A stretch of DNA of 57,190 bases, counting the filler, from Basidiobolus ranarum (lineage: Eukaryota), in NCBI GenBank assembly GCA_040143965.1. It is 3 parts of 3 records of this genome, joined end to end, with 100 filler letters (N's around TTAATTAATTAA, not from the genome) between each part and the next. Parts side by side here need not be neighbours in the genome. Positions count along the whole stretch, not along the records: positions 1 to 19,029 come from JASJQH010007135.1; 2 more parts are not named here. One strand, 5' to 3'. Both the position numbers and the translations under genes were made by a program. The notes beneath the pieces were generated by a model, which saw only the letters and a program-made list of their open reading frames with translations, did not search any database and was not told the DNA's origin. Of this stretch, positions 82 through 32,054 are shown one piece after another (the first letter of the stretch is position 1; each line of letters starts with the position of its first letter).

Positions 82-84
82 CAC

Positions 85-3671: not shown

Positions 3672-4568
3672 ATTTAAAAGTTAGACCTTCGAAAGAAAAC
3701 ACGGTAGAAGAATTAAAAGGAGTCTACTCGAACTATTAGAAGCTCAATAGTCAGAGCGGATAAGTTACAATGTGAAGAAAGTTCAGCTTCTTGACTGGGC
3801 AATCGCAGTTGATGTAGCAGTATGGATGATTTTATAGGATGATCCATGCTTCGTTGTAACTTCTGCAGTAACCATCAACAATTCTAGGGACTCGATCTTG
3901 TTGGTTCACATTATAAATGGTGGAGTGACTCTCAGATTAATCAACGTTTGTACAAACATAATTGTCATTAATAGAAATGCTCTAATTATGGCACACCTGG
4001 TAGTTGGGGGCAAGATCTATACATCCACAACCTAATCTATGCGGTAAATCTAAATTTATTTCACTTAATCGCTGGCTTTTATTGCTCATTAATGCATCTG
4101 CCATGAAGTTAACCCTATCTAGGAATTGGTGCACATTAGACATATATTTTAGGCAGGGTTCGCTCTAACTGCAGGCCTTTATTGGCTAGAGGCAAAACTT
4201 TGATAAGTTCTTGTGGAACCCAGCATCAGACCAATGAGTATTGAGTCAGTCGTGTAACTTGTCTATTAATGTTATTCTATTTTAAACTTAAACAGCTTTC
4301 TAAGATATGTTGATTAACTCGGGCTTATTTTGAGCTCAATGTGGTAGCATAGAGATCAGTGACGTCATATAATTCCACTGGATGACGTTTTCTTGTTAAA
4401 CGAAGGTTTATGCTAGATTGAGGTGTATGATGAATTTTGTACCTCAAGTTATTCCAGTTCACATCTTCTTGGGAATTACGAATAACTAAGGAGAAAGTTG
4501 AAAACATAATATACAGATACTTGGAACAGTTCTGGACTACGCCTTTTTGAGTTTTCTTCTACACTAAA

Positions 4569-7500: not shown

Positions 7501-9012
7501 CTTAACCTGGTCAAGTCGCCTCTTATTCAGGGAGCATCTCTCGATAGCCTTCTTGAGCTTTATGCTGCATTGGTTCATACCGATGAGAGCGATTTCACTC
7601 CTCTGATGAATAGTCTAACAAGCCTTGTTCGCACTGACTGTGACAATGAACAATCTAGCACCACCAATCAATCATACTCCATAATTGCCCAATGTGCTGC
7701 CACATTATGCTTAAACTCAACAAACAATTGTCAGGCGACTGTGAACTCTTTCATCAATGAGATCAAAGACACTTCGTCTTCGGATTCGATGAAGTGCTTT
7801 TCATTATTGGCTTTGGGTGAGATCGGTCGAAAGATTGACTTGAGCCAGAATGAAGAGCTCCACAGCCTTATTCTTTCGCTGTTTTCATCCCAATTGGAAG
7901 AAATCAAATCTGCTGCTGCTTTTGCTCTGGGTAACGTCGCAGTAGGTAATGTTCCCAAGTATCTTCCCATCATCATTAGCGAGATCAAAGAGCAAAGCAA
8001 GAGACAATACCTTCTTTTCCACTCTTTAAAGGAGCTGATTACTCGTCACTCTCATCAGCAAGATGCCGAAGTTCTCAAGCAATTCGATGGGGAGATATGG
8101 GAGTTGTTGTTCGCCAATTGTGATAGTCAAGAGGAAGGAACCCGTAATGTAGTTGCCGAATGTATTGGAAAAATGACTTTGACCAACCCCCAGAAGTTCT
8201 TACCCGACTTGAAGGCTCAGCTTCAGTCATCCTCACCTCATACTAGAGGGACCGTTGTCACTGCCATTAGGTATACCTTCACGGATCAAACGCAGAGTTT
8301 CGATGATCTGCTTCATCCGTTGATTGTTGAGTTCTTGTCCTTGATGCACGATGGTGATTTGAATGTGCGTAAGATGTCATTATCGACCCTTAACTCAGCC
8401 GCTCATAACAAGCCATATCTAATTCGCGATGTTCTGGACCAATTACTTCCTTTGCTGTATGAAGAGACGGTAGTTCGAGATAATCTGATCTACACGGTTG
8501 AGATGGGTCCCTTTAAGCACAAGGTAGATGAAGGTCTCGAGATTCGTAAAGCAGCGTTCGAATGCATGTATACCCTGTTGGATCATTGCTTGGATAGAAT
8601 CGAGATATTCGGATTTTTGGATCGAGTAGTGATGGGTCTTAACGATCAACAAGATATCAAAGTCCTCGCCCATTTAATGCTTATACGACTAGCTCGTGTA
8701 CTTCCAGCCGCCGTGGCACAGAAATTGGATGATTGCGTTGATCCACTCAAAGCAACCGTAGATCATAAAATCAAACAATCCTCGGTCAAACAAGAGGTAG
8801 AAAAGCATCAAGAGTTGGTTAGATCAGCGCTTCGAGCAGTTGCGGTCATTTCCAAACTTACCGAATCATCCAGTTCACCGAAATTCGATGCTTTCCTAAA
8901 TGAACTGAAAAGTGGAGCTTTGGCAGAAGAATATCAAACGGTCTTACAAGAGACCGATGCTAAAGAGAGTTATCTAAACGGTGGATTTGGAGAGTTCATG
9001 GATTTGAGTTAA
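4569..9012 (+). CDS. CAND1: Cullin-associated NEDD8-dissociated protein 1 (TIP120), HEAT-repeat SCF exchange factor, 9 exons
   Basis: N-terminal [20 protein letters not shown] and [67 protein letters not shown]. Eight GT-AG introns, then a terminal exon at 6186-9012. Confidence 0.96.
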
Positions 9013-9226
9013 ACACCAACACATATTCTATGAAATATATGCATTGCTCCAGTAAGTGAAAAAGTGAGAGCATCGATCCCATTCGATTTTTATGAAAGTG
9101 ATTTTACTGTTTACTGTATAAATAAATTGGATTTATCAACTATTGCTTGGTAAAATGATTTCATAAATAGTTTCATTAAGATTACATGTATAATGCTGCT
9201 AGAAAGTGTAAACATATGTTGCTCTT

Positions 9227-12200
9227 TTAAGGCTGATTAGCAGTTGCAGTTGACTTCATTAAAGTGAGCCAGCCCTCTATACTTTCAAATAATTCCATGG
9301 TTAGACGTTCAAGTGTATCCATTGGAAGTTCATCGTGTTTGCCTGTAGGGGAGGGAGATAGACTTCATTAGATATGGGTTCAAATCGTCTTAATAATTCA
9401 CTCAATCATTTACCGCTGCCCACTAAATTACCGAAGCAGGGGGAATGGTGTTGAGCTCTGACGGTGGGATCTACAGAAATGTAGGAGTTCTAGATGGAGG
9501 AAGTGTTGGCTTGAGACAAGTTAAGTTGCCAAAGAAGAATAGTATGGCTACCTTTACAAACCAGCCACTTTTTTCTGGAGATATCGTGGGTAACTCATCT
9601 CCAGGTATCAGTGACATGAATATTGGATACTTTTCGATGCCATCTAAATGAATTCCTAGTCAGCAACATCAAACACACAAGAATCAGAGGAAACCATAGT
9701 CACCTATAAGTGTCACGAGATGTGCGACTGACACTGCTCCGTATCCTGTAGCAACAAATATAATCTTCTTCTGGGTTGTAGTTCTGAGGAATAGGATTTA
9801 GATGAAGTCAGGTTGTCTACAGTTTTCTATGGAGACTTACTTTATGTGTCGGTCCCAGATATATCTCAGTAAACGGTCCACAACCCTCCTATCTTCATCT
9901 TGAAAATCATTCTGGATTGATAAAGTGAAGTGAGCAAAAGAAAAGAGGCAGTATTCTCCAGTAGAATCTTACAAAGTATGGAATATTCACGTCTATCAGC
10001 TCCCAATTATTCACCAGAAACTTTCCTAATGTTTTGTTAGCAATATCAAGCTAAACCTTCATTAATAAAACCATTCAGTATTTATACAGGTATTAGATTG
10101 CAATACCAGGCTTGATTCTTTTTGCGAAGTGGCTTTCGGATGATTCCTGTGAAAGCGAAGGCGAATGTGAATGTGAATAGAATCCAGAAGCAATCTAGAC
10201 TGAGAAATCAAGTCTTACATGTCATGTAAAAAAACCACCAAGACCGACGAGATGAGCGTTCGATCGCTAGAGGGAGCGATGGATGTTAATGGAAACGTAC
10301 TGATGTCGTTTACGTGTTACTATCTTCTTACGTTTGGAAAACTTCCTCGTGGAAGTACTCGGGAACATTTGACCCAGTAATGGGGAGTTTTGAGAGGCCA
10401 AATTCATCAATCAGTTTTTTAGAGCGCTCTACAGATAATTCTACGGAAGGAGCACAAGATGATGAGCAGATTATTTGGACGAAACATCTGCACAATGTTA
10501 CTTACTTTGACGCTGCTCTACCCGCTTATTTAGATCATCTACATTTGCCAAGTAAGTTTAATATCGATTACAACGTGGAATAAGAGATTTATAAATCATC
10601 CCATACCAGAGAAAGCCGATTTGATGTTTAGTTCACGTAGAGATTTCCAGTAGACCGAGTGAATTTGTGCCACTTTCTCTATCAGCTCAATACACTTTGG
10701 ACTCGGAATACCCGGCTGAAGTGGTGGAGGGTCTTCTCCAATGAGCACTCGAACACAAGCCAGAGCTGATTCAGAGATTATGTCGTAATTGTAACCGCCC
10801 TAGGATTGATGGTTTAGATGATGTACTTTGTGCCAGTAACGCAAGTCTTACAATCACCTCTAAACTTAGCACTAGCTTTCCACCGGCCAAAGATTTCAAC
10901 TTTTGAGTCATATGGGCAAAGCCTGCGGGTGAGACGAAACTTCCGCCCATCAAATCCCCTGATGTTCGAAATGGTTACAACTATGGTTACTTGATTTCTG
11001 ACTATATAAATATTCACAAAACCTGAGCCAGCGTTAAATCCCGATGCCACTAATATCAAATCAACATAGTTAACTCTACTGTCACTCATACTAATCCCCA
11101 AACTAATCACCTACCGATAACGATCTCTGGGGCAAATTCATAAGCTATTGGCATTAACAGTTTGCTAAAGGCATACAGATAATCGAAATCTCCCATTCCA
11201 GCGCATGGCCAGGGGACGTTGATGGTTCTATGGAGTAAGGTTAGGAATAAGAGAATGGAGAGGGCTAGCTATGTTCACTCACCTTCCCTTGCCTTCGCCC
11301 TCCCCAACTATATAATGGGCAGCGGTTGTTTCGTAGGGATAGAATTTCGCATCCTCGTAGCGATGCAAGGAGAAGTAGAGTACATTGGGGTCAGATAGGA
11401 AGGCCTTTTGAATACCATTTCCTAAAGGTATACATGTCACATGAGAGCTATATAGAACATTACTTGTACGACAATTATCTACCGTGGTGGACATCCCTAA
11501 AACCATTCGCTTAGTAAGAATGTTGAGACAAGAATGCTAACATCTGCCTACCAATCAACTATGAGAATTCTTTTGGCGTGATGATATTTTTGCAGACACT
11601 TCGTAGCTACAGCCTAAATGGATCTCAATGTCAACTAAATGACATCAGGGGAGTGGTTCGACAAACACACATACCACATTATTGTACAAACAGAAACCCC
11701 TTTGGTAAAACATGATATAAGTTACTGTTTCAAATAATCATCATTTGTGTATACTAACATGGGCTATGAAGATGCGGAAGGACGTCATGAAAATATCCAA
11801 GCATCATGAAAATCAGTATCCTGATATGTGTTGAAAGCATCAATTAAATAGGTAGATACCTCGTCGGGTTCGGCGTGATGTCCTCTGTCGATATATATTT
11901 TAGCTTTCTCAAATAAAGAAACACTGCGATAAAGCTACTTACGGTGGTCTAACGATGGCCATTCCGTTTTTGATTTTCCCTTGATACACTGTTCTACAGA
12001 GTTCTATGACGCCACCGCAAGCCAGCTTGGCACAATGGGAAGACATTGAATTCAAGTATAAAGAATCATGTTGATTGGCTAAAGCTGCCAATTTTTCCTC
12101 GGATAATGCTTTTTTATGAGAGGAATATAGATAGTTGAGTAATATACTTTAAAGCAAGTCGGAGGAGTATATAATACCTGAGGAATCGGTGATCTCAGTA

Positions 12201-12499
12201 ACGTGACGTTTGGTATGCACTAATAACAATTCTTCTTCGGTGGCCTCCCGACAGTTAACTTTGGCGCATCTAGATAGGCAGCCTGATGCCGCTATTTTCT
12301 CATAGATGTGGTATGCTCGAAGAGACTCTTCTGGATGTGGTAGTCCAGTAACAACTGGAGCATGATAAGCTAAACGAACATCGTAAACCAGGCCTGTGTC
12401 TGGCCTATGAGTGGGGTGAACTTTGACTTCAGGGGGTGAATCTAGACGTCTTTTCTTCTGATTTGAGTGAAGACGACGGCGACGTGATTTAGTTCCCAT
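9227..12499 (-). CDS. HDA1: Class II histone deacetylase (Hda1/Clr3-like) with probable C-terminal Arb2-like region; very intron-rich
   Basis: Spliced motifs [60 protein letters not shown] and LEGGYN. The start and the stop (9227-9229) were traced by eye; C-terminal exons are less certain. Confidence 0.88.
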
Positions 12500-13094
12500 T
12501 AAGGTATACTTGAGAGAATAAAATAAACACTGGGAAAATATTTATGTATGACAGAGAGAAAGGGGAATATTCATATGTATTAGATATACTTTGGAAATCT
12601 TTTTTAAAGAAATCTTGTGGTTGTTTATTTTTGGTCATCGTTTGTATCATGATTAACCCAAGGCTACTTGACATGATGTTTCTTATTGGTCATTTCGTAT
12701 TTCGTATTTCGATTTCGCATCTCACATTTCGTTTAGTTGATCAGTTTGTATAATAACTGATATTGGCTCATCTATTTTTGAATCACAAATCTAGGAAAGT
12801 GGCTTATGCCTCATTGCTATATATCAATCCCCTTACTCCTTTTCTCTTGCCCTATCATCACTAAAACTAGTGCGAATTCTACTAGCCTTATCCAAGAACG
12901 ATTCTAATCCATGCATTTCCTGGTTGATTAGTTCTTTTGCTATTCCGTTATTGCATTCACCGTCACTATGCCACTTCTATCGTTGTTAAAGCACGACGAT
13001 TGATCATCTCAACAATCTCATCTCAACGACCAAGCGTGTAAGTTTTTGTCAAGGGTAAAATCTCCATGTTCTATTTGGTATCAAGGTATGCGTC

Positions 13095-13207
13095 CTGTCT
13101 CTTTATTGGATCCATTATAACCGTATACAAGCACCACCAAAACTGTCTCTTTATTGGATCCATTATAACCGTATACAAGCGCAGACGATGGAATAGCACC
13201 ACCAAAA
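13095..13207. repeat. Local duplication (38 bp exact, A-B-A-C-B pattern)
   Basis: ctgtctctttattggatccattataaccgtatacaagc at 13095 and 13143; gcaccaccaaaa at 13131 and ~13196. Confidence 0.9.
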
Positions 13208-13372
13208 ATAACCAGTTCATTCTCAAAAATCATCCGATTTAATAATTCCTTTAATGTCTATTTTTTATAAGGGAATGGGCATGGGAAAGGGAAGAGAAGG
13301 TGTATATGAGTAGGCAGATTGGGATATTTTGAACCCTGAAAATGATGGGCTTCTAAAAATCAAATGGTTTGT

Positions 13373-14473
13373 TTAAAAACTTTTACGACGGAAGAGTGCT
13401 TTGCGTAGATTATTTCTGATTACTCCTTGTTGGAAACGCTGATAATTCAGGTAACTATTCTTGTCATGCTTGAAAATATCACAGGTGAGTGAGTTCCGTT
13501 CGGCAACGAGGATTTCAAGTGCAGTGGCCACTTGTTGACTAGATAATTCGCATAAATAGCGATCTAACAATACCACACCTAAGATGAATAGAAGCAACCA
13601 ATAGGCCATTGATACTAGTATTTTGCTATGATTGTACAAGTTAATCTGAGAATCTGATAAAGCACTGCTCTTTCTAGAATCGGATCCGGTAATATCAATG
13701 TACATATCAGAAGGAAGGATGGACGTCAACGGAGCACCCTTAGCGTTGTGTTCATGGAAGAATTGAAACTCGGAATACGTTGCAAATGGACAAGGATCTA
13801 ACTCACTTTGGATCAATACCGAGTCTTCTCGGAAGTATGGGCTATCGATACAAGTTACCAGATCCAAATCCAAATCCAAATCTAAATCCAAATCCAAATC
13901 CATCAAATCATCCATTGGATCATCCAGCAAACTAGCTTCTAGTTTAGCTTCTGAATGAACCGCATCATTTGCATCCGAAATCAAGTGCTCCAACATATTA
14001 CATACTCTTTTATAACCTTCATCCAAACATTTTTCCTTTTGTAATGATAAGTCAACATTAGATCACCTCGATACTGACACTGATACTAACGCTGGTCCCG
14101 ATACTGACCTGAATATCCTTGCTGACCGGAAATGTGGTCTCATTCAAACACTTTGTGATGGTAGTGGAGATGTACTCAGCCCTAGATTAGAAGATAAGAT
14201 TATTACTCTTACTTTGCTTGAGTGATGGAGTGATGGCAATAACTTACTCAGAGTCCCGAATATCCTCCATTTGATGGGATGGACGGTGGTCCAAGAGTCT
14301 ATTCAGCGAAGAGCAGAGATTCTCTAGATACACCATCTACCCAACAGAAGCGTTAGAAGAAAGCCACTCGAACACTGAAAGAGAGGATGTACCTTGTCAG
14401 AATTGGGAGTATCAATATCAAACTCACTCAACGTAGCTTCCAGTCTTGATTTAACATAGAATGAGCGGTTCAT
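13373..14473 (-). CDS. Hypothetical protein with one predicted TM helix and an Asp-Leu repeat, 4 exons
   Basis: ATG at 14473 (MNRSFYVKSRLEATL). Three GT-AG introns join in frame to the 217-aa ORF. Hydrophobic stretch MAYWLLLFILGVVLL; C-terminus FRRKSF. No family recognised. Confidence 0.65.
13862..13902. repeat. Coding hexanucleotide microsatellite (ATCCAA)n encoding DLDLDL...
   Basis: atccaaatccaaatccaaatctaaatccaaatccaaatcc is seen directly. Confidence 0.9.
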
Positions 14474-15419
14474 AATCGAGACTTGAAGAGGAACTCCAGC
14501 CCTTTCAATTCTTTAATAATGGCAGTGTAGCGAAGGAGAAGAGGTATGTGCTGTAGTGTAATGTTTGTAGTCTGATGTGTATCCTAGAGCGTAGAAGGAA
14601 CTCTCTGTACTACATATATATACGAAATACTAGTTAAGATACAAACCGATCGACATTACTGTAGTGTGACTTGATGCATTACTCATGCATTCTTCATGAC
14701 TATCTTTTAGTATCCCGTGAGTTGATTGGTCCTTGAAAATGGAAAAATGTGAGGGGGTGAAGAGGCAAGATCAAGCGTACTTCAGTATCAATCTCAATGG
14801 ACCCATTCCAATACCCACAGTTCAACTCGTAGGCCTCCTACACTCGGTAGAGTGGCTCATGTTTCTTTCAGGTGCGCTGGGTTGCAGACAAATGTAACAT
14901 GTGATCAGTCTAAATAGTAGTATTGCTGCTCATACCCTAACCAACTTACTCTCTATCTTCTGTTTGAAATACATCTATAATGTATATTACAAGCTTTTCA
15001 GGGAATTTTGAGTTGAAATTATCTGTATTATAAATCAAAGAACTAGGAGAAACTGGAAATGTTGTAATAAAATGCTATACTCTATACACACTCCATTACT
15101 TCTTTTCACCATTTGGAGTGCTCCTAGTATTTAAAATGACATAGCTTAAGCATCAATATAGTCACATAGTTAGCTACCAGAGTTCCACTACGGTACTCAA
15201 TATCTATATAAGGAACTCACATAATATTCTTACAAACTTGAAAGTTCCAAGATTATGTAATTTTTGCAAACTTGTCCCAGAGACCCTAGGCTTTGCTTGT
15301 TGGAATTAGCATTGTACAAACACCTATATAGTCATGTATAGCTCAGTATTTAGTTATCCTATATTGAACTAAGATATTACTCATTATTCATTATTGGAAT
15401 ATACTTAGAATATTGACAC

Positions 15420-15600
15420 CCACTTAGAAGTTCTCAGATATATATATTTTTCGAAGAAGCCCCAAACTTTGCACACAAGCTCCTGGGACCTTCCTTAACA
15501 TATTCTACACATTAGTTTGTTTATATCTTGACAACATCATAAATGTAAACTGAATACTCAATAAGTGAAACCCACCTATTTCTCAAATTTGCCAAACCAC
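15420..15600 (-). pseudogene. Possible integrase Zn-binding (H2C2-like) remnant; dispersed repeat with 21515-21657
   Basis: An ungapped ~95-nt alignment links it to 21563-21657. Translations are MMLSRYKQTNV*NMLRKVPGACVQSL and MVLLRYVCANLQHVLKRIAGACVTCL, with a CxxC in the second copy. The integrase identity is inference. Confidence 0.3.
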
Positions 15601-16043
15601 TTCCAACAGACTCCCAAATACTTTAATAGAGACCCTTTGCTTGGTAGGCATCATCCTATAACCTACCTGAATATATTCTTTATGTTGGCTTGTCTACTTC
15701 TAGACAAAAGTCCAAAGCTTATCTTCCACCAAAATAAATCATCAAGAAAATCAATATATCTAGCTCACCAAATCACTTCCAACTACTCTCAAAATACTCC
15801 AACTCTTTCTTCAATGAATTGAATTATTGCATTGCTTAGCTGAAAACTGTCTTTCCTTACTAAACTATTATTAGTTGTGCTACCCATATATAAAATATCC
15901 ATAAAACAATCTGTTATATACATCAATATACTCATAGCTTAAGCAACTATGTAGTGACCATTTATCAGGGTTTGGAAAATTGGAATATTAGTGCTTAGAT
16001 CCTGATTATGCAAATAGTACCATCATTAAAATAACAAAGCACT

Positions 16044-16775
16044 ATGAAAATCTTAATGAATTTAAACTCATGCTATAGTAGAAATTACTACATTACTATG
16101 ATACAAGCTGCTTTATCTTTGATAGATATTATATTTGAGGTGGCTACTATGCTGATCAACCACTCTATCAGTGAAGATTGGTTATTATTGGATAATTGTT
16201 ATTTGAATTTTGAAACAGGGAAACTCCATAACCTGGTACCAGCCTTATATATATCAAATGTAATCCAAACCCCATGGAAAGATGAAGATCCTCCTGAGAG
16301 AATTATAGCCTCTCCATTAACTATACTCAAACCATTTCTATGAGAGCTTTTCTTGGATTGCACAGAAAATGAATATGGCAGATTCATCCACAATCTACAA
16401 GTTATTATTGCATAAAGATTGACTGGCAAGGCAAATCTCCACATAGTTATTTTCCATATGGGTTAGGTAGAATTGGTAAAGCTTTGTTCAGTGGGCTGCC
16501 AAAATCCATTTTTGTTGATGAGAATACTTCATTCAATGAAAACAAGCTGCTAATTGATCCTACAAAGTAGTACAGAAATTGTTCAACTTTGCACAACTTC
16601 TTAGAGATTGAAACAATCAAAGAAAGACTATGAAGGTCAAGCTCAGGGCATTGTGCAGCAAACACCATGTCTGAAACAGAAGTAATCTGATAGCTAACTC
16701 AGATAAAAATATTATTTGAAAGAACACTGAATTGACTGAACAGGCATACACAACCCAATTAATAGAATTAATTGA
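16044..16775 (+). pseudogene. Decayed D5-family primase/SF3 helicase (poxvirus D5 / P4-type) remnant
   Basis: D5_N-like LDNCYLNFETGKLHNLVPALYISN, then LQVIIA*RLTGK. After a 1-nt frameshift comes Walker A-like YGLGRIGKALF (16457-16489), then Walker B-like MSETE and ELTEQAYTTQL. Stops and a frameshift are present. Confidence 0.55.
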
Positions 16776-19029
16776 AGCTTTGTATCTCATGTTTGACAGG
16801 CTAAATGCAAAAGAAGAATTGCATCATGTAAGATTCAAATAATATACATATGGCATTGCAATACTTGTAAGGACAGCATAAAACAAAGATATTTATATGA
16901 TAAAGAAACAAACAATATATTCTAAATAACTACCTATGTACCTCCTAGCATTGCCACCAAACCATTGGTAGTCTCACAAATCAAAGCAATACATTTCAAT
17001 GTTAATTCTGGTCAGTATATATAAGGAGGCAAAGTAGGAACTGGATTTGACAAAAGAGGAAACTTCAAAGGCCAGACATAATGAAGTCTTTAGACATATG
17101 GCATAATTTCCTCAAGTGGGCACTTCATGGTACACTGTTAATTCACAAACATTAGAACATAAATTGATGCAACACAATTATCAGTGATACTAAAAAATTC
17201 TGGGGGCAAAGTGATATATTCAAACTATATCTTAAAGATAGCCAAATCATAATGAATGATTCAGAGCAACTAATAGCAGAGAAGATGCCAATTTTAGTGG
17301 AACAAGGATATTATAATAGATCAAGTGATATTGAGAGAGAATTAATAGCTTATTAACTCAAAAACCAACCTCATATAACCACATTATCAAATTACAGCAA
17401 GTACACAAAATGCTTTTAAGAATATATCATATATTCAAAATGAGAACTAATCATGGAGGTATTATGGATATTGTATGTACTTTTGATCTCAGACATATCA
17501 TCATCAACTGATTGACAATAAACAGCCATCAAGATATATATGATGATTTAGCTGATCAATGGTTGATGCCTATACTTTGCAATCTGGGCCAACCATATAG
17601 AAGATTTTCTTTCAATATGCTAGTCCATGTAATCAGCTTATTAACAAATCTCTGCCAAACTTTCAAAGCTCAACAGATTTCATTTGTCATACATGCACTA
17701 CCTTTCCACTAATATTTACAATGATACATCATATCATTGGAAACTATTGTTTCACATATTAGTATTCTTTTGTATTTGACTACTTTGTGCATGTGACCAT
17801 TTCTCCCACTTTGAAGGAGATCACAATCAGGACAAGCATACAAACATATAAGTATAACTAACAAATATTTGATGAATTCATAGTACCAGAAAACCAAAAA
17901 GAAATTGCATTTTTCACCTTAGCAATACCTGATTGTTTAAAAGAAAAGCAGTTGTATACTTATCAACCAGAAAACAGCATTATTCAGTTCTTATCTGGTT
18001 TAACCACCAAGTTCAATTGCAATTCGAACAAGACTCTGCCATTTGGAGGAAGTCAAAATAAAAAATTCAGAGCTAAATATTCACCATTAATGATAAGTAG
18101 AAATCTTGCCTAACATAAGCAGTAAATAGTTTGATATGAATAACAGTGTTTGAATCACTCAGGAGATTCAGTAATGCCATTTCAACTTTACAAATCTTGC
18201 TATTTAATCTTTCATACAGTGAACACTAATATTCCACAGTAACAGCTGTGACACCTACATCATATCATTGATCAATTTGACAAAGGATTCAAACCAATGC
18301 TACCAAAAAATTGTTCAAACTATCAGTTGATACAATTCAAGAGCAGCTCCTGGGGTATATGCAACATTGGCTAATCTGCAAGCCAGTTAAGTTGAGATGT
18401 TATACAGTAATAACATGACATCAAATAATATGCCAGCCTAGTTACCCACGGTTTCATTTCAGTTACTTCCTAAACAAATTGATAGAAACATTAAAGATAT
18501 TCTGATTGCAAAACTCTACTGCCAGAGAGCACAAGAGTAAAGTTAGGCAGAAACACTACTATGAAGCAAACATTCCACTCCAAACACAATCCAGAAGTGC
18601 TTACACTTGAAGAGTGCAGGCTACATAGGAAGTATCAACCTGAACATGCAACTTGCTTTGAAAGGCTGCTAGAGCCTAGCTGAGAGAGAGAAGATTAGCA
18701 GTAACTAAAGAAAATGTTGTCCACTGTAAAACAAACTCAATGGTGCTAGCAATCACTGAGCTTACCCTCTGCAGCTAATTATTGGTTAAAAATTGTCAAG
18801 TCAAATATGATTTCAATCATTTTTTTCAGTTTGAGGAGTGAAATTTCAAAATATCACAAAAGAGTTTCACCTGATTGGCTACAATCTCAGAGAATAACAG
18901 ATCAACACATGTGCAAAAAAAATTACTCAAATTTTACACATTTATGACTTTTTGAGAAAATATGGGCTGTTTGGAGGAACTTTAGAAAAGCAGAGTTGTT
19001 AATAGCCTTGTGAGATAATTATTTATTGT

Positions 19030-19129
19030 NNNNNNNNNNNNNNNNNNNNNNNNNNNNNNNNNNNNNNNNNNNNTTAATTAATTAANNNNNNNNNNNNNNN
19101 NNNNNNNNNNNNNNNNNNNNNNNNNNNNN
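19030..19129. other. Artificial contig linker N44-TTAATTAATTAA-N44
   Basis: Exactly 100 bp. The core at 19074-19085 gives stops in all six frames. Confidence 0.97.
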
Positions 19130-19237
19130 TTAGAGCAATAAACACACGTTTTTGAATAACAGAATTGAGTGCTAAATAATCAGAATATGAATAAACTAAC
19201 TACTAAATAATGAGTTGCTATTTACCTAATTTCAACA
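19130..19237 (-). mobile_element. Terminal part of a Copia LTR (minus orientation) abutting element A
   Basis: Matches the right end of the LTRs at 26785-27137, 31201-31542 and 32951-33301. It ends ...aatttcaaca and is followed directly by pol sequence in the opposite orientation. Confidence 0.85.
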
Positions 19238-21459
19238 GTTTCAGGCTTGGAAATTGAAAACAGCGCTACATTGGATCTGTGTGAAGGTTGCATAGATGGA
19301 AAACCTCACAAACAGCCATTTGCAAGCTCTGGAGAGATCAAATCTACTCAGAACTTTGCCCTGATTCATTCCAATATATAAGGCCCCATGATAAATATCT
19401 CACTAGGTGGCAAAAGTTACTCTATGACCTTTATTGATGACCAAACAAGATATATTTGAATATTCTATCTCAAATCAAAATTTGAAGCCTTAGCTATGTT
19501 TAAGCACCACAGTGTAGTGGTAGAGAAGAAATAAGCACAAAAGTAAGGTAGTATGGAGTGATAATGGTGGAGAATCCTGCTCTAAAGACATTGCTAGTTT
19601 TTGTTCAAAACATGGAATCAAGGTACAAACTACTGTACCTTATACACCACAGCAAACAGGAGTTGTACAATGTGCTAATAAGGCCATAATGGAGTCGGTA
19701 AGATTAATGTTACATGATCAAAAGTTAGACTATCAGTGATGGCCAAATCTGTCTTCACTGCAATCTATATCAAAAACATATGCCCAACAAGATTGCTACA
19801 AATCTTTACTCCATATGAAGCCCCATATGGATCCAAACTAAATATGGATCATCTCAGGATGTTTTGTTGCACAGCATATTGCCTTATTCCTGGTCAAATT
19901 GCTCTATATTAGAACCAAATAGCACAAAATACATATTTATTGGATACTATGATGGATCTAAGCCCTGCAGACTGTTTGCTTCCAAGAATCAGCAGTTAAT
20001 TAGGTGCAGATATGTGATTCTGGATGAAAAGCAAACTTTCCTCTCAAATCATAGTTTGTGATCTAGAAAAGACAATCAGCACTATTCAGGAAGTGTACGA
20101 CAAGATTCCAACTGTATCTGGGCCTATTCAGCTGAAGTTCCCAGCCCACTTGGACCATCATTTGGGACATAGAAGATCATTCAGAAGGAAAAATATGCCA
20201 GGGAACTGATGGAACACTCCCAATGAGGATATCTATGCTTATACAATAATCTGTGACAGGCCACTGACTCTAGAGCAAGCCCTGGAGTGTCCAGAATAAA
20301 GTATATGGGAAGAAGCAATGTCTGATTAGTTTTCTTCGCCTCAGGACAAGAAAATGTGGGTTCTAAGTCCTCTACTATCAGGGAGAAAGCCAATAGGTTG
20401 CAAATGGGTCTACAAAGTCAAAACCCAAGCTGATGGAAATGTAGAAAGGATCAAAGCAAGATTAGTTTCCAAAGGTTATCCCCAGACTCCAAGAGTCAAT
20501 TTTTAGAAGCTTTTGCTCCACTAGCTAAGTTTAGCTACAGTAGATCAATCCTGACATTCTATGCCAACCATTAACTTGATTGACATGGATGTAAAAACAG
20601 CCTTTCTGGATGGAAATCTTGAAATTTTGAAGGCTATAATAATGCAAACTGGGGAGAAAGCCTTGATGATAGAAGCTCAATTACGGGGTACACTTTTTTC
20701 TATGGTACTGGAGCCATAACTTGGAATAGTAAGAACCAACAACCACAGCACTTTCCACTACAGAAGCAGAGTATATGGCTGTCTCTACTCCTACACAAGT
20801 AGCTATGTGGTTAAGGAAGTTATTTACAGACTGAGGATACATGCAAAGATGAGCTATTTCTGCATTAGAAGATATCCAAGTTATATTTCATTAGCCAAAA
20901 ACCCTACATTCACATGCTAGGACAAAAATATAGATACTAGGCATCATTTTGTTAGAGAAGCAATGGTGATTGATATAATTGAACTTGTCTATTGCCCTAC
21001 TGAATAATTTATTGATGACATCTTAACCAAACCTTTAGCTACAGCACTATCTGTATTATTAAGGTATAAGGTAGGTTTAAGAGAAATAAAAATAATTAGT
21101 TGAGTAGGAATTTTTCAAAATAGGCCAATAGCAACTCATTATTTGGTGGTTAGTTTATATATATTCTTACTATTTAGCACTCAATTCTGACATTCAAAAA
21201 TGTGTGCTTACTGCTCTACTTGATAGAAATATCAATTAGATCACTTTTACCAATTTTCACTATTTTCTCAAATCTTCTCCAAATCACCTCCAGTTTTCAC
21301 ACAAGCTTGACAGGCATGTTTTTTGAGCTATGCATGGCCAATAGTTCTATTTCATGGTAAACCATACATAAGACATATTCAATTCAATAAAACTTTAGTA
21401 TCTAATTCACAAATATAAACTTGTCTAAACACCTCCAAAGTACATAAACACTGTTATCA
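19238..21459 (+). mobile_element. Degenerate Ty1/Copia element A (integrase, internally deleted RT, RNase H, PPT, 3' LTR 21111-21459)
   Basis: CEGCIDGK, DNGGE, PYTPQQTGV, PIGCKWVYKVK, KARLV, MDVKTAFLDG, LSTTEAEYMA and IDTRHHFVRE-like motifs in Copia order. Purine tract agttgagtaggaa precedes an LTR ending ttatca. Confidence 0.92.
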
Positions 21460-22346
21460 AATTTGACCTGAAAATACACACATTTCTTGCACTAGCAATT
21501 TATTAGATTTACATACCAACTTAGAAGTTCTAAATTTACTGACTTAACAACTTGCTTCTGAAGCTATAAACATGTCACACATGCTCCTGCAATCCTCTTT
21601 AATACATGTTGCAAGTTGGCACACACATATCTTAACAAAACCATGAACTTACATTGCCATCTATAAAGTTAGCAGCAATATATATGCATAATATAGGAAT
21701 TTATGTGTTCAGAATGCTTACAAAATAAAGTGAAAACAACTCAACCAGCTAACTGATTCTCTTCAACTTTGGCACAGAGTATGGGTAGTGTTTGATTCTG
21801 CTATTAGCATGGCCTTGAGATCACAGTAGCAGTCATAGCAATCTCAATAATGACTTGATGCAAAGACACCTACTCCTTGCATATATACCTAACCTCCAAT
21901 TCACAGAGTGTACCTGCAGCTATCTTAGTTATGCTTGCAACCCCCCCCCCTCACAAAAAGAAAACTTCCAGCCTTAGCAGCAGCCAAAACTGCACCATAT
22001 CCTACATCTCTTCTTTTACTAGATATTTTACCCTATATCACAGTAAGGTAATAGAGCTTCCTATTGCAACTCAACTTGGCCTGACTATCAAAAATGCAGC
22101 AAAAATTCATTCATAGGTACTTTTACTCTGACAGATACACTACATATTTGCTTCTTGATCCAATGCTGTACCAGTCATACACAACAATATCTGTCCATTT
22201 GTGCTTCAAGTAGGAGAAACCATTGTTGCTATGTCTATGCTTGCAATATTGAAGTTTCTTGATAGTTCCATAGTTGGAAATACTGTTTTTTCAGAATGTC
22301 AATTATGTAATATCTATACATTCAAAAGACAGATAGATGAATATAT

Positions 22347-25300
22347 TGTGGCAACTAAGTCAATAACAGCTCATTATGTAGTGAGTGGTTTATTCATATT
22401 CTGGTTCTTTAGCACTCTTCTATGACATTCATAAATGTGTGCTCATTGCTCTGATTGATAGAAATATCAATCAGATCACTTTCATCAATTTTGACTATTT
22501 TCTCAAATCTTCTCCAAGTGATCTCAAATTTGCATCCTTGCTTTACAAGCATGATTGCTATGATCAAAGAACATCCAATAGTCCTTTATTATAGTAAACT
22601 ATGAGTAAGACATATTGTAATCAATAATACTCACTTGTGTAATTAATAAAGAAATCTTATCCTTACACTTCCTTATCTCCAAAGCACTTTATTGAAATTA
22701 TGAGACCCAAGCTATATGCTAAAGGAATGTCTACCAGTACTATTACTAGCATTTTTGCATCCACACACAAGTTTGATGGTGAAGATTCTAACCCCTGGAA
22801 GTTCAGGTTGCAAATATTGCAAGAAAACAAGGATCTTTGAGAATTGGTTACAAGAGATGAAGTAGAGCCAAAGGGACCACAGGAAGCTATCCTTGTCTTT
22901 CACAAGAAGCAGTGGAAGGTGTTCTTTACACTTTTCTACATCTTAGAGACTCTCAATTGAGGCACACCCATTCAGCTAAAAGTTTCCAAACTGTTGGGGA
23001 AACACTTGAGGGACCATATTAGACTAAAAGTCTAGTTTAGGCATATACCATCAGCCAAAAACTTCCAAAATGTTTGGAAAACTCTTGAGGGACTCTATGA
23101 CACTATAAGCCTAGCAATAAGGCTATTTTTTAGAAGAACATATTTCCCAATTTGGATGAAATCTTGTGTTTCCATCGCCAATGATATAAGTTGGATACAA
23201 GCTATGGCACATCAGCTGTCATCCATTGGAGCATCTCCAACTGAAGATGAAATAGTAATAACATTACTTGGAAGCCTGCTAGAAAAGTTTAGGAAACTCA
23301 CAATTGCCCTTAGAATCAAGATGAGAGCCATCAACAATGAAAAATGTTGGAGCCAGGCTTTTGAATGAAAAAGTAAGGAGATTTAATCCTTATCAATGTA
23401 ATGCAGAGCAGGCACTCTTTGAAGCTATAAAACTTCCAACAGGCTCCAATAATGGTGCCTCTAGTTAGAAAGCAATGGTAAGGAAATATTGCAAACAATC
23501 AAGCCATTTGATCAAAGATTGCAGAAAATGCTTTTTGCTGAAAAGCTAAATTTGGAACAGGCAAGTCAACTAAGCACTGATGGACATCATATATCTTTGT
23601 CTGCCTTATCATTAACCATCAAGGAAGACTCCAAAGGATGGTACATCAAGTTGTGAGCTTCCCAGCCTATGTCAAACAAGAAAAGGGCTTTCCAATATAA
23701 AACCACTCCAATCTAGGAAAGCCTACTTATGTGATGCCTATGCACTAAATGTGGTTAGTTAGGGCACAGATTAGCTGAAATAAACCATATATTTAGATAC
23801 ACCAGCTGCAAAACTGGATGAATTGGTTGATGTACCAAGTGTAGGCATGATTGTCCTCTCAGTAAGTAGTCCAACAGCTCTAGGACTGGGTAACATGCTC
23901 AGTAAGGCTGGATGCTCTATCACATAAAAGAATAGTACTAAATTAACAACTGGATTCACAACTCAAAACTTAAACAAGCTGGAAATCTACAAAACACTCT
24001 GACCATGGAAACCTGGCCCTAACTGGTGAAATAAGCTTTCAAATAAAGCAGAAAAGATTAGGCCATGTCAGGCAAAAACACTGACCCAAATGATACAAAA
24101 TCAGCTTTTTTCAGGTTCAAAAATTCAAAACCTAATCAAATTGGATCCCTACAAAGAATTCATGTATTGAGAACATCTCAGGCAGCCATTTCCAAGCTCT
24201 AAAGAAGTCAAACCAACCCAGAATTTTGCTCTGATGCCTTTTGATATGTGTGAGCCCATGAATAATGTCTCACCATGTTGCAAAAGATACATCATGTCCT
24301 TCATTGATGGCAATATCAAATATTCAAGTGTGTTCCTTGTCAAATCAAAATCCAAAGCCTTGGCTACATTCTAGGACTACAAAGCAATAGGAGTGAAAGA
24401 CTCAACACAAAAAAAAGGATACAAAGGAGTGTTAAATACTACTTTCAGGGCTTTACTAGTTCTTGCTCTAAACATAATTAAGCAAGACACTACTGTACCT
24501 TATACTTCACACCAAAACATGGCTGCAGGAACATGCTAATATATCATAGTGGAGATGGCAAGAGCAATGTTACAGTAGCAAAAGCTAGATATTCAATGTT
24601 GGGCTGACTCTATCTCCACTGTAGTGTTTATCAAAAACATATGCCCAACAAAAATACCATAAGCTCTTGTGTCATTTAAAGCCCTATATGGATTCAAACC
24701 AAGTGTGGATCAACTTGGGACCTTAGGTTACACAGCTTATTTTCTAAATCCAGTTGACAAATGCTCTAGATTAGAGCTCAAAGCAGTAAATGTATATTTC
24801 TTAGCTAGTGCAATGAATATACCGCCAAAAACTGTTTAATAACAAAAATCACCAGTATATTTTGTGCGGAGATGTGACTTTTGATGGCATGCAAATTTTG
24901 CATCTCACATCATTGTTCTAGATCAAGAAAACACAATCAGCACTATTTAGGAAGTGTTTGACAAAATTCTAGTGGTATCAGAGCCCAAATCAGCCAAAAA
25001 CTCAGCCCCAATTACATCAAATGAGGAATGAGGACCAACAGGATTAGCCACACAAGGGTTAAGGCAGGGTACTGGTGGAACCTTTTGATGTCATTGTCTA
25101 TGCTTATGCAGCATTCAGTAACATGCAGCACACTATAGATTAAGCTGTACAGTGACCACAATCAAAACATTTGAGAAGCAATATTTGATGAGTTTTCTTT
25201 GCTTTAGGACAGTAAACTATGGGTCTGAGGTCCGCTACCATCAGGGAGAAAGGAAATAGACTGCACATGGGTCTACAAAGTTTGAAACCAAGCTGCTGGC

Positions 25301-26419
25301 ACCATAGAGAGACAAGGAAAGATTAGATGCAAAAGGTCAATCCCAGACTCCAGGAGTTGATTTTGATGAAACATTTGCTCCAGTAGCTATGTTTAGCTTC
25401 ATTAGAGTAATCCTGGCACTCTGAGATGTCCATTAACTTGATTTACACAAATGCATGTAAAAATAGCCTCTTGGAGTAGAAATTTAGAAGAGATCTTTAA
25501 GGAGCAACCAGAAAGATTTGTTGACTCAAACACCAGGATATGGTCTGTAAGCTACAAAAACTGCTATGTATACTCATCAAGCACCCAGAGTATGGTTAAG
25601 CAAATTAGATTTTTATTTGCAATCACTGGATTTTCAAAATACAAAACAAATCACAGTATTTCTATCAGAACAATAAAAAATAGTATCCTTATCTTGGCAC
25701 TATTTGTGGGGTACCTCATCATAGCTGTAAATGATCTTGAAGCACTCAATCAGATGCAAATCTGCTTATTAGATTAGTTTCAGATGACTGATGTTGGTAA
25801 ATCAAGTTTTTTCCTTGGAACCCAAATCAAGCAAGATAAACCAAAGCAGAAAATCATGTAGAAGAAATCTTAATACAACTTTGACATCCTAAAATGCTGC
25901 AACATGGAGAATAGCAGGCCTGTATCAACACCTATGGAACCCAATATGTAATTAATCCAAATTTCATCTAACAATACCCAAGGTGACTCAAATCAAAGCC
26001 CAGAGTCCTTTATCAAGCCATGGTCAGTAGTTCAATGTATACAACAGTTGGAACACATCTAGATATTCCCATGGCAATGGGAACTATGAGCTAATACCAC
26101 AAAAGTCTACAATCTCAGCACAATACAGCAGTAATACAAAGATCCAGGTATTTGACATAAGTTGTAAATCAAGTTCTGGAATAGTCTGGTATTGCTGATA
26201 CAGACAGGGGTAAGCACCTGGATGATGGGAGATCAACAATTGCGTACACTTTTTTCTATGGCAATGGAGCATATAACTTAAAATAGTATGAAGCAACCAG
26301 CTGTAGCAATTTCCATTACAGAAGCAGAGTATAGGTCTGCCTCTGCTACTACACAAGAAGCTATGTGGTTAAGGAAGTCGTTTACAGACTTAGAATACAT
26401 GCAAAGTACATGCTATTAC
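22347..26419 (+). mobile_element. Degenerate Ty1/Copia element B (5' LTR 22347-~22695, gag-pol, 3' truncated)
   Basis: LTR homologous to the others, a PBS-like ttatgagaccca and gag ATG at 22727. Integrase, RT and RNase H remnants carry many stops. Similarity ends abruptly in RNase H. Confidence 0.9.
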
Positions 26420-26784
26420 GGTAATTGTGAATGGTGCTCATAAATATTTTGAAACTTCCTGCTTTTCACAAAATTGCATGGAACCAATTTTCATCATTAA
26501 TATATTAAAATCAAAATACTTCTGCAAGAAAGGGGACTTTGAGATACTTATGCACTAGAAGAAAATACTGCAAGACTATCACTAAGCAAAACCTTTCTAC
26601 AGGTTGAAGAAGCACAGAACACCTTTGATAAAATATGTCATAATGTTAGAAAAAAATTGCTAAGCAAATGACAATAAGATATAGAAAGGATTGGAATGTT
26701 CCTATCTTAGTGCTTCTACTGCAGAGAAGATGTTTTCAAGAAGACATATCTTTAAATCAAACATGTATCCAAGAGCTAACAATC

Positions 26785-29700
26785 TGATAACATTGTTGAG
26801 GGGATTTGGAAGTGTTTGGGACAAGATTTGGATTTGTGAATTAAACACTTAAGTTTTATTGATTTGAATATGTTCTATTTATAGTTTACTATCAAATAGG
26901 ACTATTACATATGCTTAGATCATAACAAACATGCCTGTTAAGCATGGGTGAAAATTTGAGGTGATTTGGAGAAGTTTTGAGGAAATAGTGAAAATTGGTA
27001 AAAGTGATCTAATTGTTATAGCTATCAATTAGAGCAATAAACACATGTTTTTTGAATGACAGAATTGTAAGATAAATAATCAGAATATGAATCAACTAAT
27101 CACTAAATAATGAGTTGCTATTTACTAAAATCCAACATTCCCGCTAAACTAATTATTTTGTATAACTCTTAAACCTAACTTGCATCTTGATAATTCAAAT
27201 TGTGCTTTTGCAAATGGTGTTGTTAAGATGTTAGCAATTGTTTCTTCTGTAGGGCAATAGGCAAGTTCAATTATATCATTCTTTATTGCTTCTCTAACAA
27301 AACGATGCCTAATATTTATATGTTTTGTTCTAGCATGAAATGTTGGGTTTTTAAATAATGAATTACAACTTTGATAGTCTTCAAATACAGCAATAGCACA
27401 TTTGCATGTATGCTAAGTCTGTAAATAACTTCCTTAACCACATAGCTTCTTGTGTAGTAGCAGAGGCAGCCATATATTCTGCTCCAGTAGTGGAAAGTGC
27501 TATGGTGGGTTGCTTCTTTCTAATCCAAGTTATGGCTCCATTACCATAGCAAAAAGGGTACCCAGTTGTTGATCTTCTGTCATCAAGACTGCTTCCCCAG
27601 TCTGCATCACTGTAGCCTTCAAAATTTGTTTTACTGCATTTTTGTGCGCAGATCTGGGATTTTGAATTATTGGCTGACAGTTCCCACTGCCACAGCAATG
27701 TCTGGACAAGTTCCAACCATTGTATACATTAAACTACCCACCATGGATTGATAAGGGAACTCCAGGCTTTGATTTGAGTCATTATGGGCCAAATCAGATG
27801 AATTTTGTTTAATTTCACATTGGGATCCATTAGTGTTGAGACAGGCTTGCTATTCTCCATGTTGAAGTATTTCAGGATGTCTAGAAAGTATTTAGACTGA
27901 TTTGGCATGATTTTTAGATTGGGTTTATCTCTCTTATTATGGATTTCAAAAAAATAACTTAATTCACCCATATCAGTCATGTGAAATTGGTTTAATACGC
28001 TGCTTTTTGTCTGATTAAGTGCTTTTAGATCATTTGTGGCTATGATTAAGTCATCCACATATAGTGCCAAGGTAAAGATCCTATTTCCAGTTGTTTTGAT
28101 GTTAATATTGTGATCTGCTGTGCATTTTTGGAATTCAGGTGATTCCCAATAGTTATCTATCTTGTTACGCCATGTCCTGGGTGCTTGCTTGAGTCCATAA
28201 AGGATTTTTGCAGTTTACAAACAATATCAGGGTGTTATGGGTCCACAAATCCCTCTGATGACTCTGTATAGATCCCTTCTTCTAGATTCCCATGCAGAAA
28301 GGCTCTTTATACATCCATTTGATGTAAATCAAGGATATGAATGGCTGAGAGTGCCTGGATTGATCTAATGGAGCTATACTTAGCTACTGGAGCAACAGTT
28401 TCATTAAAATTAACTCCTGTAGTCTGGGAATAACCTTTTGCAACTCATCCTGCTTTGTACCTTTCTATGGTTCCATCAGCTTGGTTTTTGACTTTGTAGA
28501 CACATTTGCAACCTATTGGCTTTCTTCCTAATGGTAAAGGACTTCAAACACATGTTTTATTGCCCTGAAGTAGGGAAAACTCATCAGGCATTGTTCTTTC
28601 CCTTAATATTGATTCTGGATACTCCAGAGCTGGATCTAGAGTCTGTGGTTCATCACAGAATGCTGCATAAGCATATACATCATCCTTGGTAGTGTTCCAA
28701 CAGTATCATGGCTTATTTCTCCTTCTGGATAATATTCTGGGTCCTGAATCATTCTCTGATGTAATTGGGACTTGACTTTTTGTTGAATGGGGCTCAAGTA
28801 GAGCTGGAAATTTGTCAGAAACTTCCTGAATAGTGCTGATATTGTTTTCTGGATCAGGAGCTGTGATTTGAGGTGAAGCATTTGCTTTTTCATCATAAAT
28901 TACATCTCTGCACTTGATTAACTTCTGATCTCTGGTATCAAACAGTCTGTAGGCCTTAGATCCATCACAGTAACAAATAAATATGCATTTTCTGTGTTTA
29001 GGTTACAATTGAGAGCATCTTTGAGCAGGAATAAGGCAATATGCCATGCAACCACAAATCCTGCAATGATCCTTATTTGGTTTTGGTCTATATATGTCTT
29101 CAAATGGAGTAGAATTTTGTAGCAATCTTGTTGGGCATCTGTTTTTGATATAGACTGGACTTGTTCTCTATGATAGTGCCAAATTGTGCTGTATATATCA
29201 TATTGGATAAAGTATTATAAAATTTATACGGCACTATTTGGCACTATCCACCACCCTCTGGCATGATCAATTTCAATGACATTTACTTTAATATATTGAT
29301 CCAAGGTTTGATAAATCCTGGCACAATTGAACAAGTCCACTGCAGTGGAGACAGATTCAGCTCAATATTTGTAATCTAATTTTGATCATGTAACATCGAT
29401 CTTGCCATCACCACAATGGTCCTATTAGCATGTTCTGCAACTCCATTTTGCTGTTGAGTATAATGTAGAGTAGTTCATTGCTTAATTCCATATCTAGAAC
29501 AAAAACTAGTAAAGTCTTTAGAGCAGTTTTCTCCACCATTGCCACTCCTGAGTACCCTTATTTTTTGTGTGGATTCTTTCTTTACCATTGTTTTGTAGTG
29601 CTTGAATGTAGCTAAGGCTTCAGATTTTGATTTGCAACTGACTACCCAAGTATATCTAGTTTTGTCCTCAATAAAGGTCATAAAGTAGCTTTTCCCACCT

Positions 29701-31542: not shown

Positions 31543-32008
31543 CAATTAAGCTATATATATCAAAGTCACTGTTTTAGGGAATAAAATGTAATGCCTCCAA
31601 GTACCTACTACTGATCAAAATATCATAGTTGCAGTCCTGAATAGCCAACTACATACATTGTACAACCTATCCATGGCTTCAAAATTCTTCACTTATGATT
31701 TGATCTAAGATCTTATGATGCTAATAAAAGAGTGAAGAAAATACTTGAAAACACTATGGGAAACCATGCCGTAATGGTCAAAGTTACTTTACAAAGCAAA
31801 GTGCCATTTTATATGAAACAGCTGGTGAATAATGCAAGGATTTGTTTACAAGAGTTACAAAAGAAGAAAAATGAACTGAAGCAGGTAATGTGCCTACAAC
31901 TGTGGATTGTTTCTATCTGCCCTCTCTGAGGCTATCAAATGAGTCGCATAATTTGTCTATTCAGTCTGCAGCATGTATACACTATTGAAATTATTTAGGG
32001 AGAAAAAT

Positions 32009-32054
32009 TGGTCAGGCCAGGACTTGAACCTGGGAGCTCCCTCACTCTCAGTCC
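32009..32054 (-). pseudogene. tRNA-like 3' half (T-arm / B box), tRNA pseudogene or SINE relic
   Basis: Minus strand reads ccagg-ttcaagt-cctgg (5-bp stem, 7-nt loop), then cctgacca and a T-run. No matching 5' half was found. Confidence 0.4.

Follow-up and report, generated by a model that had tools for sequence, protein, structure and literature searches.

A decayed helicase-only SF3 gene of the P4/D5 family in a CpG-depleted block of the Basidiobolus ranarum genome

The stretch of Basidiobolus ranarum DNA analysed here (57,190 nt, referred to as the window) is made up of three separate pieces joined by two identical artificial linkers. At positions 16044–17511, the first piece carries the remains of an intronless gene of ~490 codons for a superfamily 3 (SF3) helicase of the P4/D5 family, which encodes the helicase only, is inactivated, and probably belonged to a self-replicating element that integrated into the fungal genome and was silenced by the host. 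Replication helicases of this family are typical of phages, plasmids and DNA viruses. The pseudogene lies in a block that has lost nearly all of its CpG dinucleotides and is physically linked to ordinary fungal genes. A preliminary description, made from the sequence alone, had interpreted the region as a fossil D5-type primase-helicase of an endogenous DNA virus or Polinton-like element, a proposal of which the helicase part is confirmed here. The coordinates of all features are collected in Table 1.

Extent and decay of the helicase pseudogene

A phmmer search of the frame-0 read-through of 15900–19028 against 1,835,955,588 representative proteins gave two matches at E ≤ 0.001. The only strong one (E 7.6e-41) is KAK9760276.1, hereafter P0004, a B. 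ranarum hypothetical protein of 492 aa (K7432_015886) that carries the UniRef name 'SF3 helicase domain-containing protein', is the sole member of its 90% cluster and is encoded on a contig of 3,699 bp. The other match, P0005 (E 1.5e-4), is a Cys/Gly-rich repeat protein aligning in six short stretches and was rejected as spurious. By local tblastn, residues 22–491 of P0004 map onto 16092–17502 with the frame order 3>2>1>3>2>1, and a frameshift-aware alignment places the complete protein (residues 1–492) on 16044–17508, with identity at 247 of 487 codons (50.7%). Six in-frame pieces tile P0004 collinearly, each at 48–56% identity. The start ATG and the stop TGA coincide with the ends of P0004, which identifies the pseudogene as a discrete intronless gene of ~490 codons. 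The preliminary description had placed its end at 16775, followed by 2.2 kb of unexplained coding-like DNA; 0.74 kb of the latter is now accounted for as the rest of the helicase, and 1.5 kb remain unexplained.

The damage to the gene comprises 11 in-frame stops and five frameshifts, each caused by one missing base, instead of the single frameshift reported before; two of the five fall within 16044–16775. All frameshifts are deletions relative to P0004, with zero insertions, a pattern that could stem from a bias towards deletions, either in the host or in the assembly technology. Among the 240 mismatched codons, 24 are explicable by one CpG deamination, many of them converting Arg to Cys, His, Gln, Trp or a stop, while 73 differ by one other transition, 78 by one transversion and 65 by two or more changes. 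This spectrum indicates that the pseudogene and P0004 are old relatives and not recent duplicates. The open reading frames (ORFs) left in the region are short, and a word-indexed homologue search with one of 102 aa gave no match. A mitochondrial-plasmid or alternative-code reading of the region was rejected, as only one TGA stands at a Trp position and the other three stand at Arg (two) and Cys.

The motif strings quoted in the preliminary description (NCYLNFETGKL, LQVIIA*RLTG, YGLGRIGKA, MSETE and LTEQAYTTQL, the asterisk being a stop) are all present in the sequence, and two of them had to be reassigned. MSETE, previously taken as Walker B, aligns with IPENI of P0004 inside an insertion of ~50 residues between Walker A and Walker B, the true Walker B remnant being LYLMFDR. 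LTEQAYTTQL aligns with SAKNAHTAQL of P0004 just ahead of Walker B, and neither string is a motif of the family. The insertion is common to the pseudogene and P0004 and absent from the six distant relatives with which P0004 was aligned (alignment A1).

The invariant columns of alignment A1 include the G/N/G/K of Walker A, the Walker B Glu, the K..T of a KxxTGGD motif, the Asn of motif C and the arginine finger. P0004 has retained its catalytic residues (VIFDE, TTN and R316), and four of five catalytic positions are altered in the pseudogene, namely the Walker A Asn, the Walker B Glu, the motif C Asn and the arginine finger, the Walker A Lys being kept. Because Walker B, motif C and the arginine finger read FDR, TTY and Q, the pseudogene copy is, as judged from its residues, a dead member of the family. 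The change at the arginine finger fits a CGA>CAA deamination. At the Ser/Thr position of the Walker A consensus (GxxxxGK[S/T]), P0004 has Gly (GLGRNGKG) and the pseudogene has Ala (GLGRIGKA). The GKG form of the P-loop (residues 145–152 of P0004) is also found in P0006, the nearest distant relative of P0004 and a phage protein, and one may ask whether Mg-ATP binding is of the conventional kind in this subgroup.

Table 1. Coordinates of features in the window
Feature	Position	Strand	Evidence or remark
Chs7 chitin-synthase export chaperone	2533–3000	minus	Pfam E 5e-50; piece 1
CAND1/TIP120 gene	6157–9012		piece 1
Block nearly without CpG, running into the contig end	14880–19029 (4.15 kb)		holds the pseudogene
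Upstream flank inside the CpG-poor block	14880–16043		Pfam, six read-through frames: 0 families; no repeats in common with other parts of the window
Full-length helicase-only P4/D5-family SF3 helicase pseudogene	16044–17511 (ATG 16044 to TGA 17509–17511)	+	phmmer, tblastn, frameshift-aware alignment
D5_N-type motif NCYLNFETGKL	16194–16226	+	P0004: NRYLNLETGKF
Walker A/P-loop remnant YGLGRIGKA	16457–16483	+	P0004: YGLGRNGKG; Lys kept, invariant Asn to Ile
Lineage-specific insertion of ~50 residues, Walker A to Walker B	~16520–16740 (approximate)	+	alignment A1 columns 817–866
Walker B remnant LYLMFDR	16780–16800	+	P0004: RCVIFDE; catalytic Glu to Arg
Motif C remnant ITTYVPP	16926–16946	+	P0004: ITTNVLP; sensor Asn to Tyr
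Arginine-finger position, now Gln (CAA)	16977–16979	+	P0004 R316, invariant in alignment A1
One-base deletions (frameshifts)	16455, 16679, 16918, 17067, 17354	+	relative to P0004
Downstream flank inside the CpG-poor block, cut by the contig end	17512–19029		Pfam (six frames), PHROGs and PDB phmmer (plus frames), large phmmer search (frame 0): no homology
Artificial linker (44 N + TTAATTAATTAA + 44 N)	19030–19129		not biology; joins pieces 1 and 2
RVT_2 match	27729–28214		piece 2, copia nest
rve match	29475–29813		piece 2, copia nest
Second artificial linker, identical (44 N + TTAATTAATTAA + 44 N)	38122–38221
Tandem paralogue array, including fragments	39434–41500, 42262–44373, 46920–48890, 50139–50543, 51398–53464; fragment 38225–38939	+

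Family assignment through P0004

By transitive homology through the sequence of P0004, the pseudogene is assigned to the P4/D5 family of SF3 helicases. P0004 passes the NCBIfam model TIGR01613 ('phage/plasmid primase, P4 family', C-terminal part), where it scores 109.0 bits (cut-off 108.7; E 2e-31), and in PHROGs the protein matches DNA primase/helicase families down to E 4.7e-28. Furthermore, tblastn with P0004 detected 158 of 50,697 phage records at 22–26% identity (best E 4e-15), with annotations such as DNA primase or P4 family primase. Homologue searches screened 7,614 candidates of similar length, six of which proved to be relatives, and 5,841 longer ones (862–2460 aa), two of which did, again at 22–26% identity. 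All eight carry D5_N and DUF5906 together with various primase domains, and some are annotated with Pox_D5; the two longer ones are Toprim-fused and 24% identical to P0004.

Structural comparisons point in the same direction. A profile built from alignment A1 matches, in the PDB, C962R of African swine fever virus (ASFV; E 2.7e-36), the SaPI5 primase-helicase and poxvirus D5/E5 (~1e-15). P0004 alone gave a marginal match to the SaPI5 primase-helicase (E 0.066) and none to poxvirus D5 or ASFV C962R among PDB sequences at E ≤ 10. With the AlphaFold model of P0004, which is of low confidence, the top Foldseek hits listed from the PDB were monkeypox virus (MPXV) E5, vaccinia D5, SaPI5 and the ASFV PrimPol (E 1.7e-10 to 1.4e-7), with template-modelling (TM) scores of 0.35–0.45. 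The Atlas model of P0004 (predicted local distance difference test score, pLDDT, 0.69) reaches TM 0.63–0.70 to clusters of P4-family primases or D5_N/DUF5906 proteins. P0004 is thus predicted to adopt the fold of a D5_N collar with an AAA+ SF3 core, the same fold as in the P4-family D5_N and DUF5906 helicases (TIGR01613; SaPI5, PDB 7OLA).

The fungal pair shares with the P4 family the order of its motifs: D5_N 'NG..DL.TG', LQ...GY.LTG, Walker A, Walker B, K..TGGD, the motif C Asn and the arginine finger. It differs from the family in its low identity to all other members, in the Walker A–B insertion and, for P0004 as for P0006, in the GKG ending of Walker A. In addition, P4-family members reside in phages, satellites and plasmids, whereas the fungal copy resides in a eukaryotic chromosome and is dead.

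The designation 'primase-helicase' of the preliminary description is a misnomer for this gene, since no primase domain is associated with it. Pfam detects D5_N alone in P0004, which has its start codon in common with the pseudogene, and no match to Prim-Pol, Toprim or PriCT was obtained in the six frames of the upstream sequence 14880–16043. Helicase-only forms of 415–500 aa are known from phages with a separate primase gene. In the one P0006-type locus analysed (L007), the helicase-only gene belongs to a tailed phage that also encodes terminase, portal, DNA polymerase and recombination proteins, and ~330 bp upstream of it lies a separate gene for a primase of the archaeo-eukaryotic type (AEP). 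This arrangement shows that members consisting of the helicase only cooperate with a primase encoded in another gene.

Close relatives of the pseudogene are rare, P0004 being the only one encountered in ~15 billion public proteins. IMG/VR yielded no relative with P0004 itself, with a degenerate pattern representing an 8-residue peptide in common, or with P0027 as the query; P0006 has 16 relatives in that database. Alignment-based locus searches failed for want of conserved stretches. No close relative was found in the JGI metagenomes or in 185,579 prokaryote genomes (GTDB), where the sole match is a bacterial ORF of 268 aa with 30% identity over residues 316–432 of P0004. This ORF was judged irrelevant as a relative, its neighbours being ordinary bacterial genes. 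It occurs on a 602-kb metagenome contig (L001, 9839–10645) and in a metagenome-assembled genome of Sedimentisphaerales (L018, 5001–5321), where genes for an HNH-AP2 protein and a DNA methylase are found close by. The ORF may correspond to the C-terminal DNA-binding domain of the helicase in stand-alone form. A full-text literature search found no paper describing the present helicase lineage, which is not proof that none exists.

The CpG-depleted block and its genomic setting

The observed/expected (o/e) ratio of CpG is 0.66–0.82 in 1–15000 and falls to 0.03 in 15001–18000 and 0.09 in 18001–21000, with TG/CA o/e raised to 1.32–1.36 in the CpG-poor stretch. The boundary of the block is sharp, the last dense CpG being at 14875, and just four CpG (15191, 15452, 18025 and 18449) are left from ~14880 to 19029. 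The CpG-poor sequence reaches more than 1 kb beyond the gene on either side. Depletion affects all four NCG contexts and TpA is not in excess. Classical repeat-induced point mutation (RIP) was rejected, as both TpA/ApT (0.84) and (CA+TG)/(AC+GT) (1.51) deviate in the direction opposite to that expected from RIP. The same signature of CpG loss is found in a nest of copia retrotransposons on piece 2 of the window (CpG o/e 0.01–0.09). We infer that DNA handled by the host as repeat has undergone CpG methylation and deamination over a long time. The block would accordingly represent silenced repeat or foreign DNA. It contains no Rfam family, no notable tandem repeat and no internal inverted repeats of note.

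The pseudogene shares one uninterrupted piece (1–19029, with zero internal N and a contig end at 19029) with Chs7 and CAND1. Chs7 is a fungal family. A histone-deacetylase fragment is also present on piece 1, and a nearest-cluster search with the CAND1 ORF did not resolve the host lineage. Of the previously proposed silenced endogenous viral element, the location in a CpG-stripped, probably silenced block linked to Chs7 and CAND1 is supported, while a viral or Polinton-like class is unproven, no hallmark genes having been found in 14880–19029.

Little else could be assigned within the block. A phmmer search of its three plus-strand frames against the PDB gave just a chance match (E 0.42), the large phmmer search, made with frame 0 alone, found nothing outside the helicase, and no other core gene of nucleocytoplasmic large DNA viruses (NCLDVs), such as PolB, RNA polymerase subunits, the major capsid protein, A32 or VLTF3, was detected in this short span of 4.15 kb ending at the contig end. 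The divergent, H2C2-like integrase remnant described upstream of the gene could not be recovered. A scan of both strands of 14880–16043 for the HHCC arrangement that precedes the DDE core of an rve integrase (H-x(3-7)-H-x(23-32)-C-x2-C) found no minus-strand pattern, hence none in 15420–16043, and no rve or zinc-finger Pfam match exists on the minus frames. The single HHCC-like pattern lies on the plus strand (15151–15267), and 13% of shuffled sequences yield one. Stop-poor stretches in the flanks are mildly unusual and favour the plus strand; composition can explain them, because that strand is A-rich and T-poor.

Nature of the element

An intact protein of this kind would have comprised the D5_N collar motif, an ATPase core with Walker A, Walker B and motif C, and a C-terminal domain. 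By analogy with solved relatives, which are hexamers, it would be expected to form a ring and to unwind the DNA of its own element in an ATP-driven manner. Unwinding would have started from the replication origin of this element, be it an integrating virus, a plasmid or something transposon-like, and the DNA would then have been copied by a separate primase and a polymerase. In the nearest phage relatives, a separate AEP primase gene lies just upstream. The element, or a piece of it, would have integrated beside ordinary fungal genes, where the host would have handled it like its own retrotransposons, by CpG methylation and subsequent deamination, until nearly all CpG was gone. The gene would have decayed thereafter, acquiring its stops and 1-bp deletions and losing the four catalytic residues.

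Several results weigh against this account. For P0004, the Pfam D5_N score (18.5 bits) is below the cut-off of 22.4, no DUF5906 or Pox_D5 match was found in Pfam at E ≤ 1, and Walker A ends in GKG rather than GK[S/T]. Its AlphaFold model is weak (mean pLDDT 47.9, predicted TM score 0.50) and was computed from an input alignment that contained D5-type relatives. For the pseudogene, phmmer gave the strong match to P0004, and in the profile searches envisaged in the preliminary description the read-through frames match 0 Pfam families and, in PHROGs, just the unnamed phrog_14683 (E 0.061), away from the motifs. A tblastn search of the pseudogene region against phages likewise gave no match. A hidden Markov model of the eight distant relatives, built without P0004 and run against the six frames of the whole window, gave two matches only, at 16188–16280 (E 0.2) and 16714–16896 (E 0.38); both lie inside the pseudogene and are collinear, yet they are not significant. 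As the pseudogene has no significant profile match of its own, its family membership depends on one bridging protein, P0004. As to the element, no pPolB, TVpol, rve integrase, double-jelly-roll capsid, FtsK-type packaging ATPase or protease was found in 14880–19029 with Pfam in six frames or with PHROGs in the plus frames, several of these having been named in the preliminary description as features to look for. The power of these negatives in the flanks is low, because the same profile searches miss the genuine helicase and the contig breaks 1.5 kb downstream. No terminal repeat or target-site duplication was found in 14880–19029, which includes one side of the block. Finally, the window contains no second copy of any part of the block, and nothing shows it to be repeated or mobile.

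Among the alternatives, a chance resemblance of motifs in non-coding repeat DNA would be consistent with the short ORFs and with the absence of a Pfam family and of a PHROGs helicase or primase family on the window frames. It is refuted by the strength of the P0004 match among 1.84 billion proteins and by the full-length collinear alignment with the same start and stop, and its probability is practically negligible. The insertion might also be a fragment of an endogenous giant virus (Nucleocytoviricota-like), in which a D5 primase-helicase is a core gene. One study describes endogenous NCLDV-like elements sharing a D5 helicase-primase in hosts from several phyla of fungi, among them Basidiobolus meristosporus and B. 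heterosporus (PMC7017919), and the first Foldseek hits of P0004 are poxvirus E5/D5, with which its predicted model shares the helicase fold and the collar domain. However, the poxvirus and ASFV proteins have 785–972 aa with a fused N-terminal AEP primase, whereas the fungal protein has 492 aa, without a primase domain, and the pseudogene shares both its ATG and its stop with it. Moreover, P0004 matches these viral proteins by structure but not by sequence, the PDB sequence search having given a marginal match to SaPI5; its longer relatives are just the two Toprim-fused proteins, and the block holds no other NCLDV core gene. A giant-virus origin is therefore improbable. Somewhat less improbable, though still unlikely, is a lone phage or bacterial gene that was acquired by horizontal transfer, later duplicated or inactivated, and swallowed by heterochromatin. 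All detectable non-fungal relatives are indeed of phage or plasmid type, but every one of them is just 22–26% identical, and no closer sequence exists in the prokaryote genomes, JGI metagenomes or IMG/VR searched. The common 50-residue insertion and the differences at 240 of 487 codons indicate a long independent history in eukaryotes, and the CpG-less block extends more than 1 kb to either side of the gene.

Better placed than these, and a possibility to be entertained with reservation, is a remnant of a Polinton-like virus (PLV), a virophage or a mavirus-related pPolB element (pMVRE). The helicase would then be one gene of an integrating element of 10–25 kb whose further genes were those for an integrase, for either pPolB or a primase-polymerase and perhaps for capsid proteins. 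According to a study of such elements in protists and fungi, a stand-alone DUF5906-type SF3 helicase is the commonest gene besides pPolB in pMVRE group 1, and a capsid-less fungal lineage is described as 'likely to be plasmids' (PMC13215967). Like the present helicase gene, pMVRE group 1 elements and PLVs are integrated in eukaryote genomes, including those of fungi, and often carry a stand-alone DUF5906 SF3 helicase; the helicase-only architecture fits. In addition, the ten structural neighbour clusters listed for P0004 include one (TM 0.70) that is 100% viral and in which Preplasmiviricota are the most frequent. Against this stand the missing pPolB, rve, double-jelly-roll capsid, packaging ATPase and terminal inverted repeats in 14880–19029, pPolB and the repeats being the defining features of the group, and the lack of a sequence link to these elements. 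There is no IMG/VR relative, and the detectable sequence relatives of P0004 come from tailed phages. Among the supplement matches of that study, the fungal pMVRE hosts are Glomeromycota, and Basidiobolus appears just among the screened genomes (PMC13215967). Overall, a protein with the helicase only is more in keeping with mavirus/PLV-type or plasmid-like elements than with the D5 of giant viruses. Because the helicase stands alone without a fused primase, our best guess for the putative self-replicating element is not a fragment of a giant virus but a small element that was capsid-less or of the virophage/PLV type.

Other features of the window

The proximity of features across the linkers, for example of a copia integrase (19240 onwards) to the helicase block, is not biological. 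Several decayed Ty1/copia copies, lying in either orientation, make up a nest on piece 2 (19130–38121), which contains many long inverted and direct repeat pairs. At its end, two adjoining open frames of 346 and 166 aa (36581–38120) encode Lys/Ser/Thr-rich products without a Pfam family; CpG o/e recovers to 0.25 around them, and they may belong to an element or gene of younger age that borders the nest. Beyond the second linker, a tandem array comprises four intact-looking intronless paralogues of ~660–700 aa and two fragments, with normal CpG content. The sole family signal is a weak leucine-rich repeat (F-box-associated) match (E 7e-4), and the array looks like a lineage-specific expanding gene family.

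Implications

Very little is known about DNA viruses of fungi and their virus-like DNA elements, and the published evidence consists largely of molecular fossils, namely NCLDV-like insertions and the mavirus-related pPolB elements of Glomeromycota; dsDNA viral regions were found in 0.89% of fungal assemblies, according to a preprint (bioRxiv 10.1101/2025.04.19.649669). In its present state, the finding adds one dead gene of a known family. Since the helicase is linked to bona fide fungal genes and has aged in place, it argues that P0004, too, is resident in the fungus and is not a contamination. Tentatively, the pseudogene and P0004 could be the first two known representatives of a hitherto undescribed family of virus- or plasmid-like DNA elements in fungal nuclear genomes. 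Such a family, itself no firmer a proposal, would be marked by a stand-alone P4-type SF3 helicase with the 50-residue insertion and would stand apart from the NCLDV-like insertions and from the pPolB elements of Glomeromycota. Intact copies with their neighbouring genes, if found, would define which self-replicating element uses this helicase in fungi.

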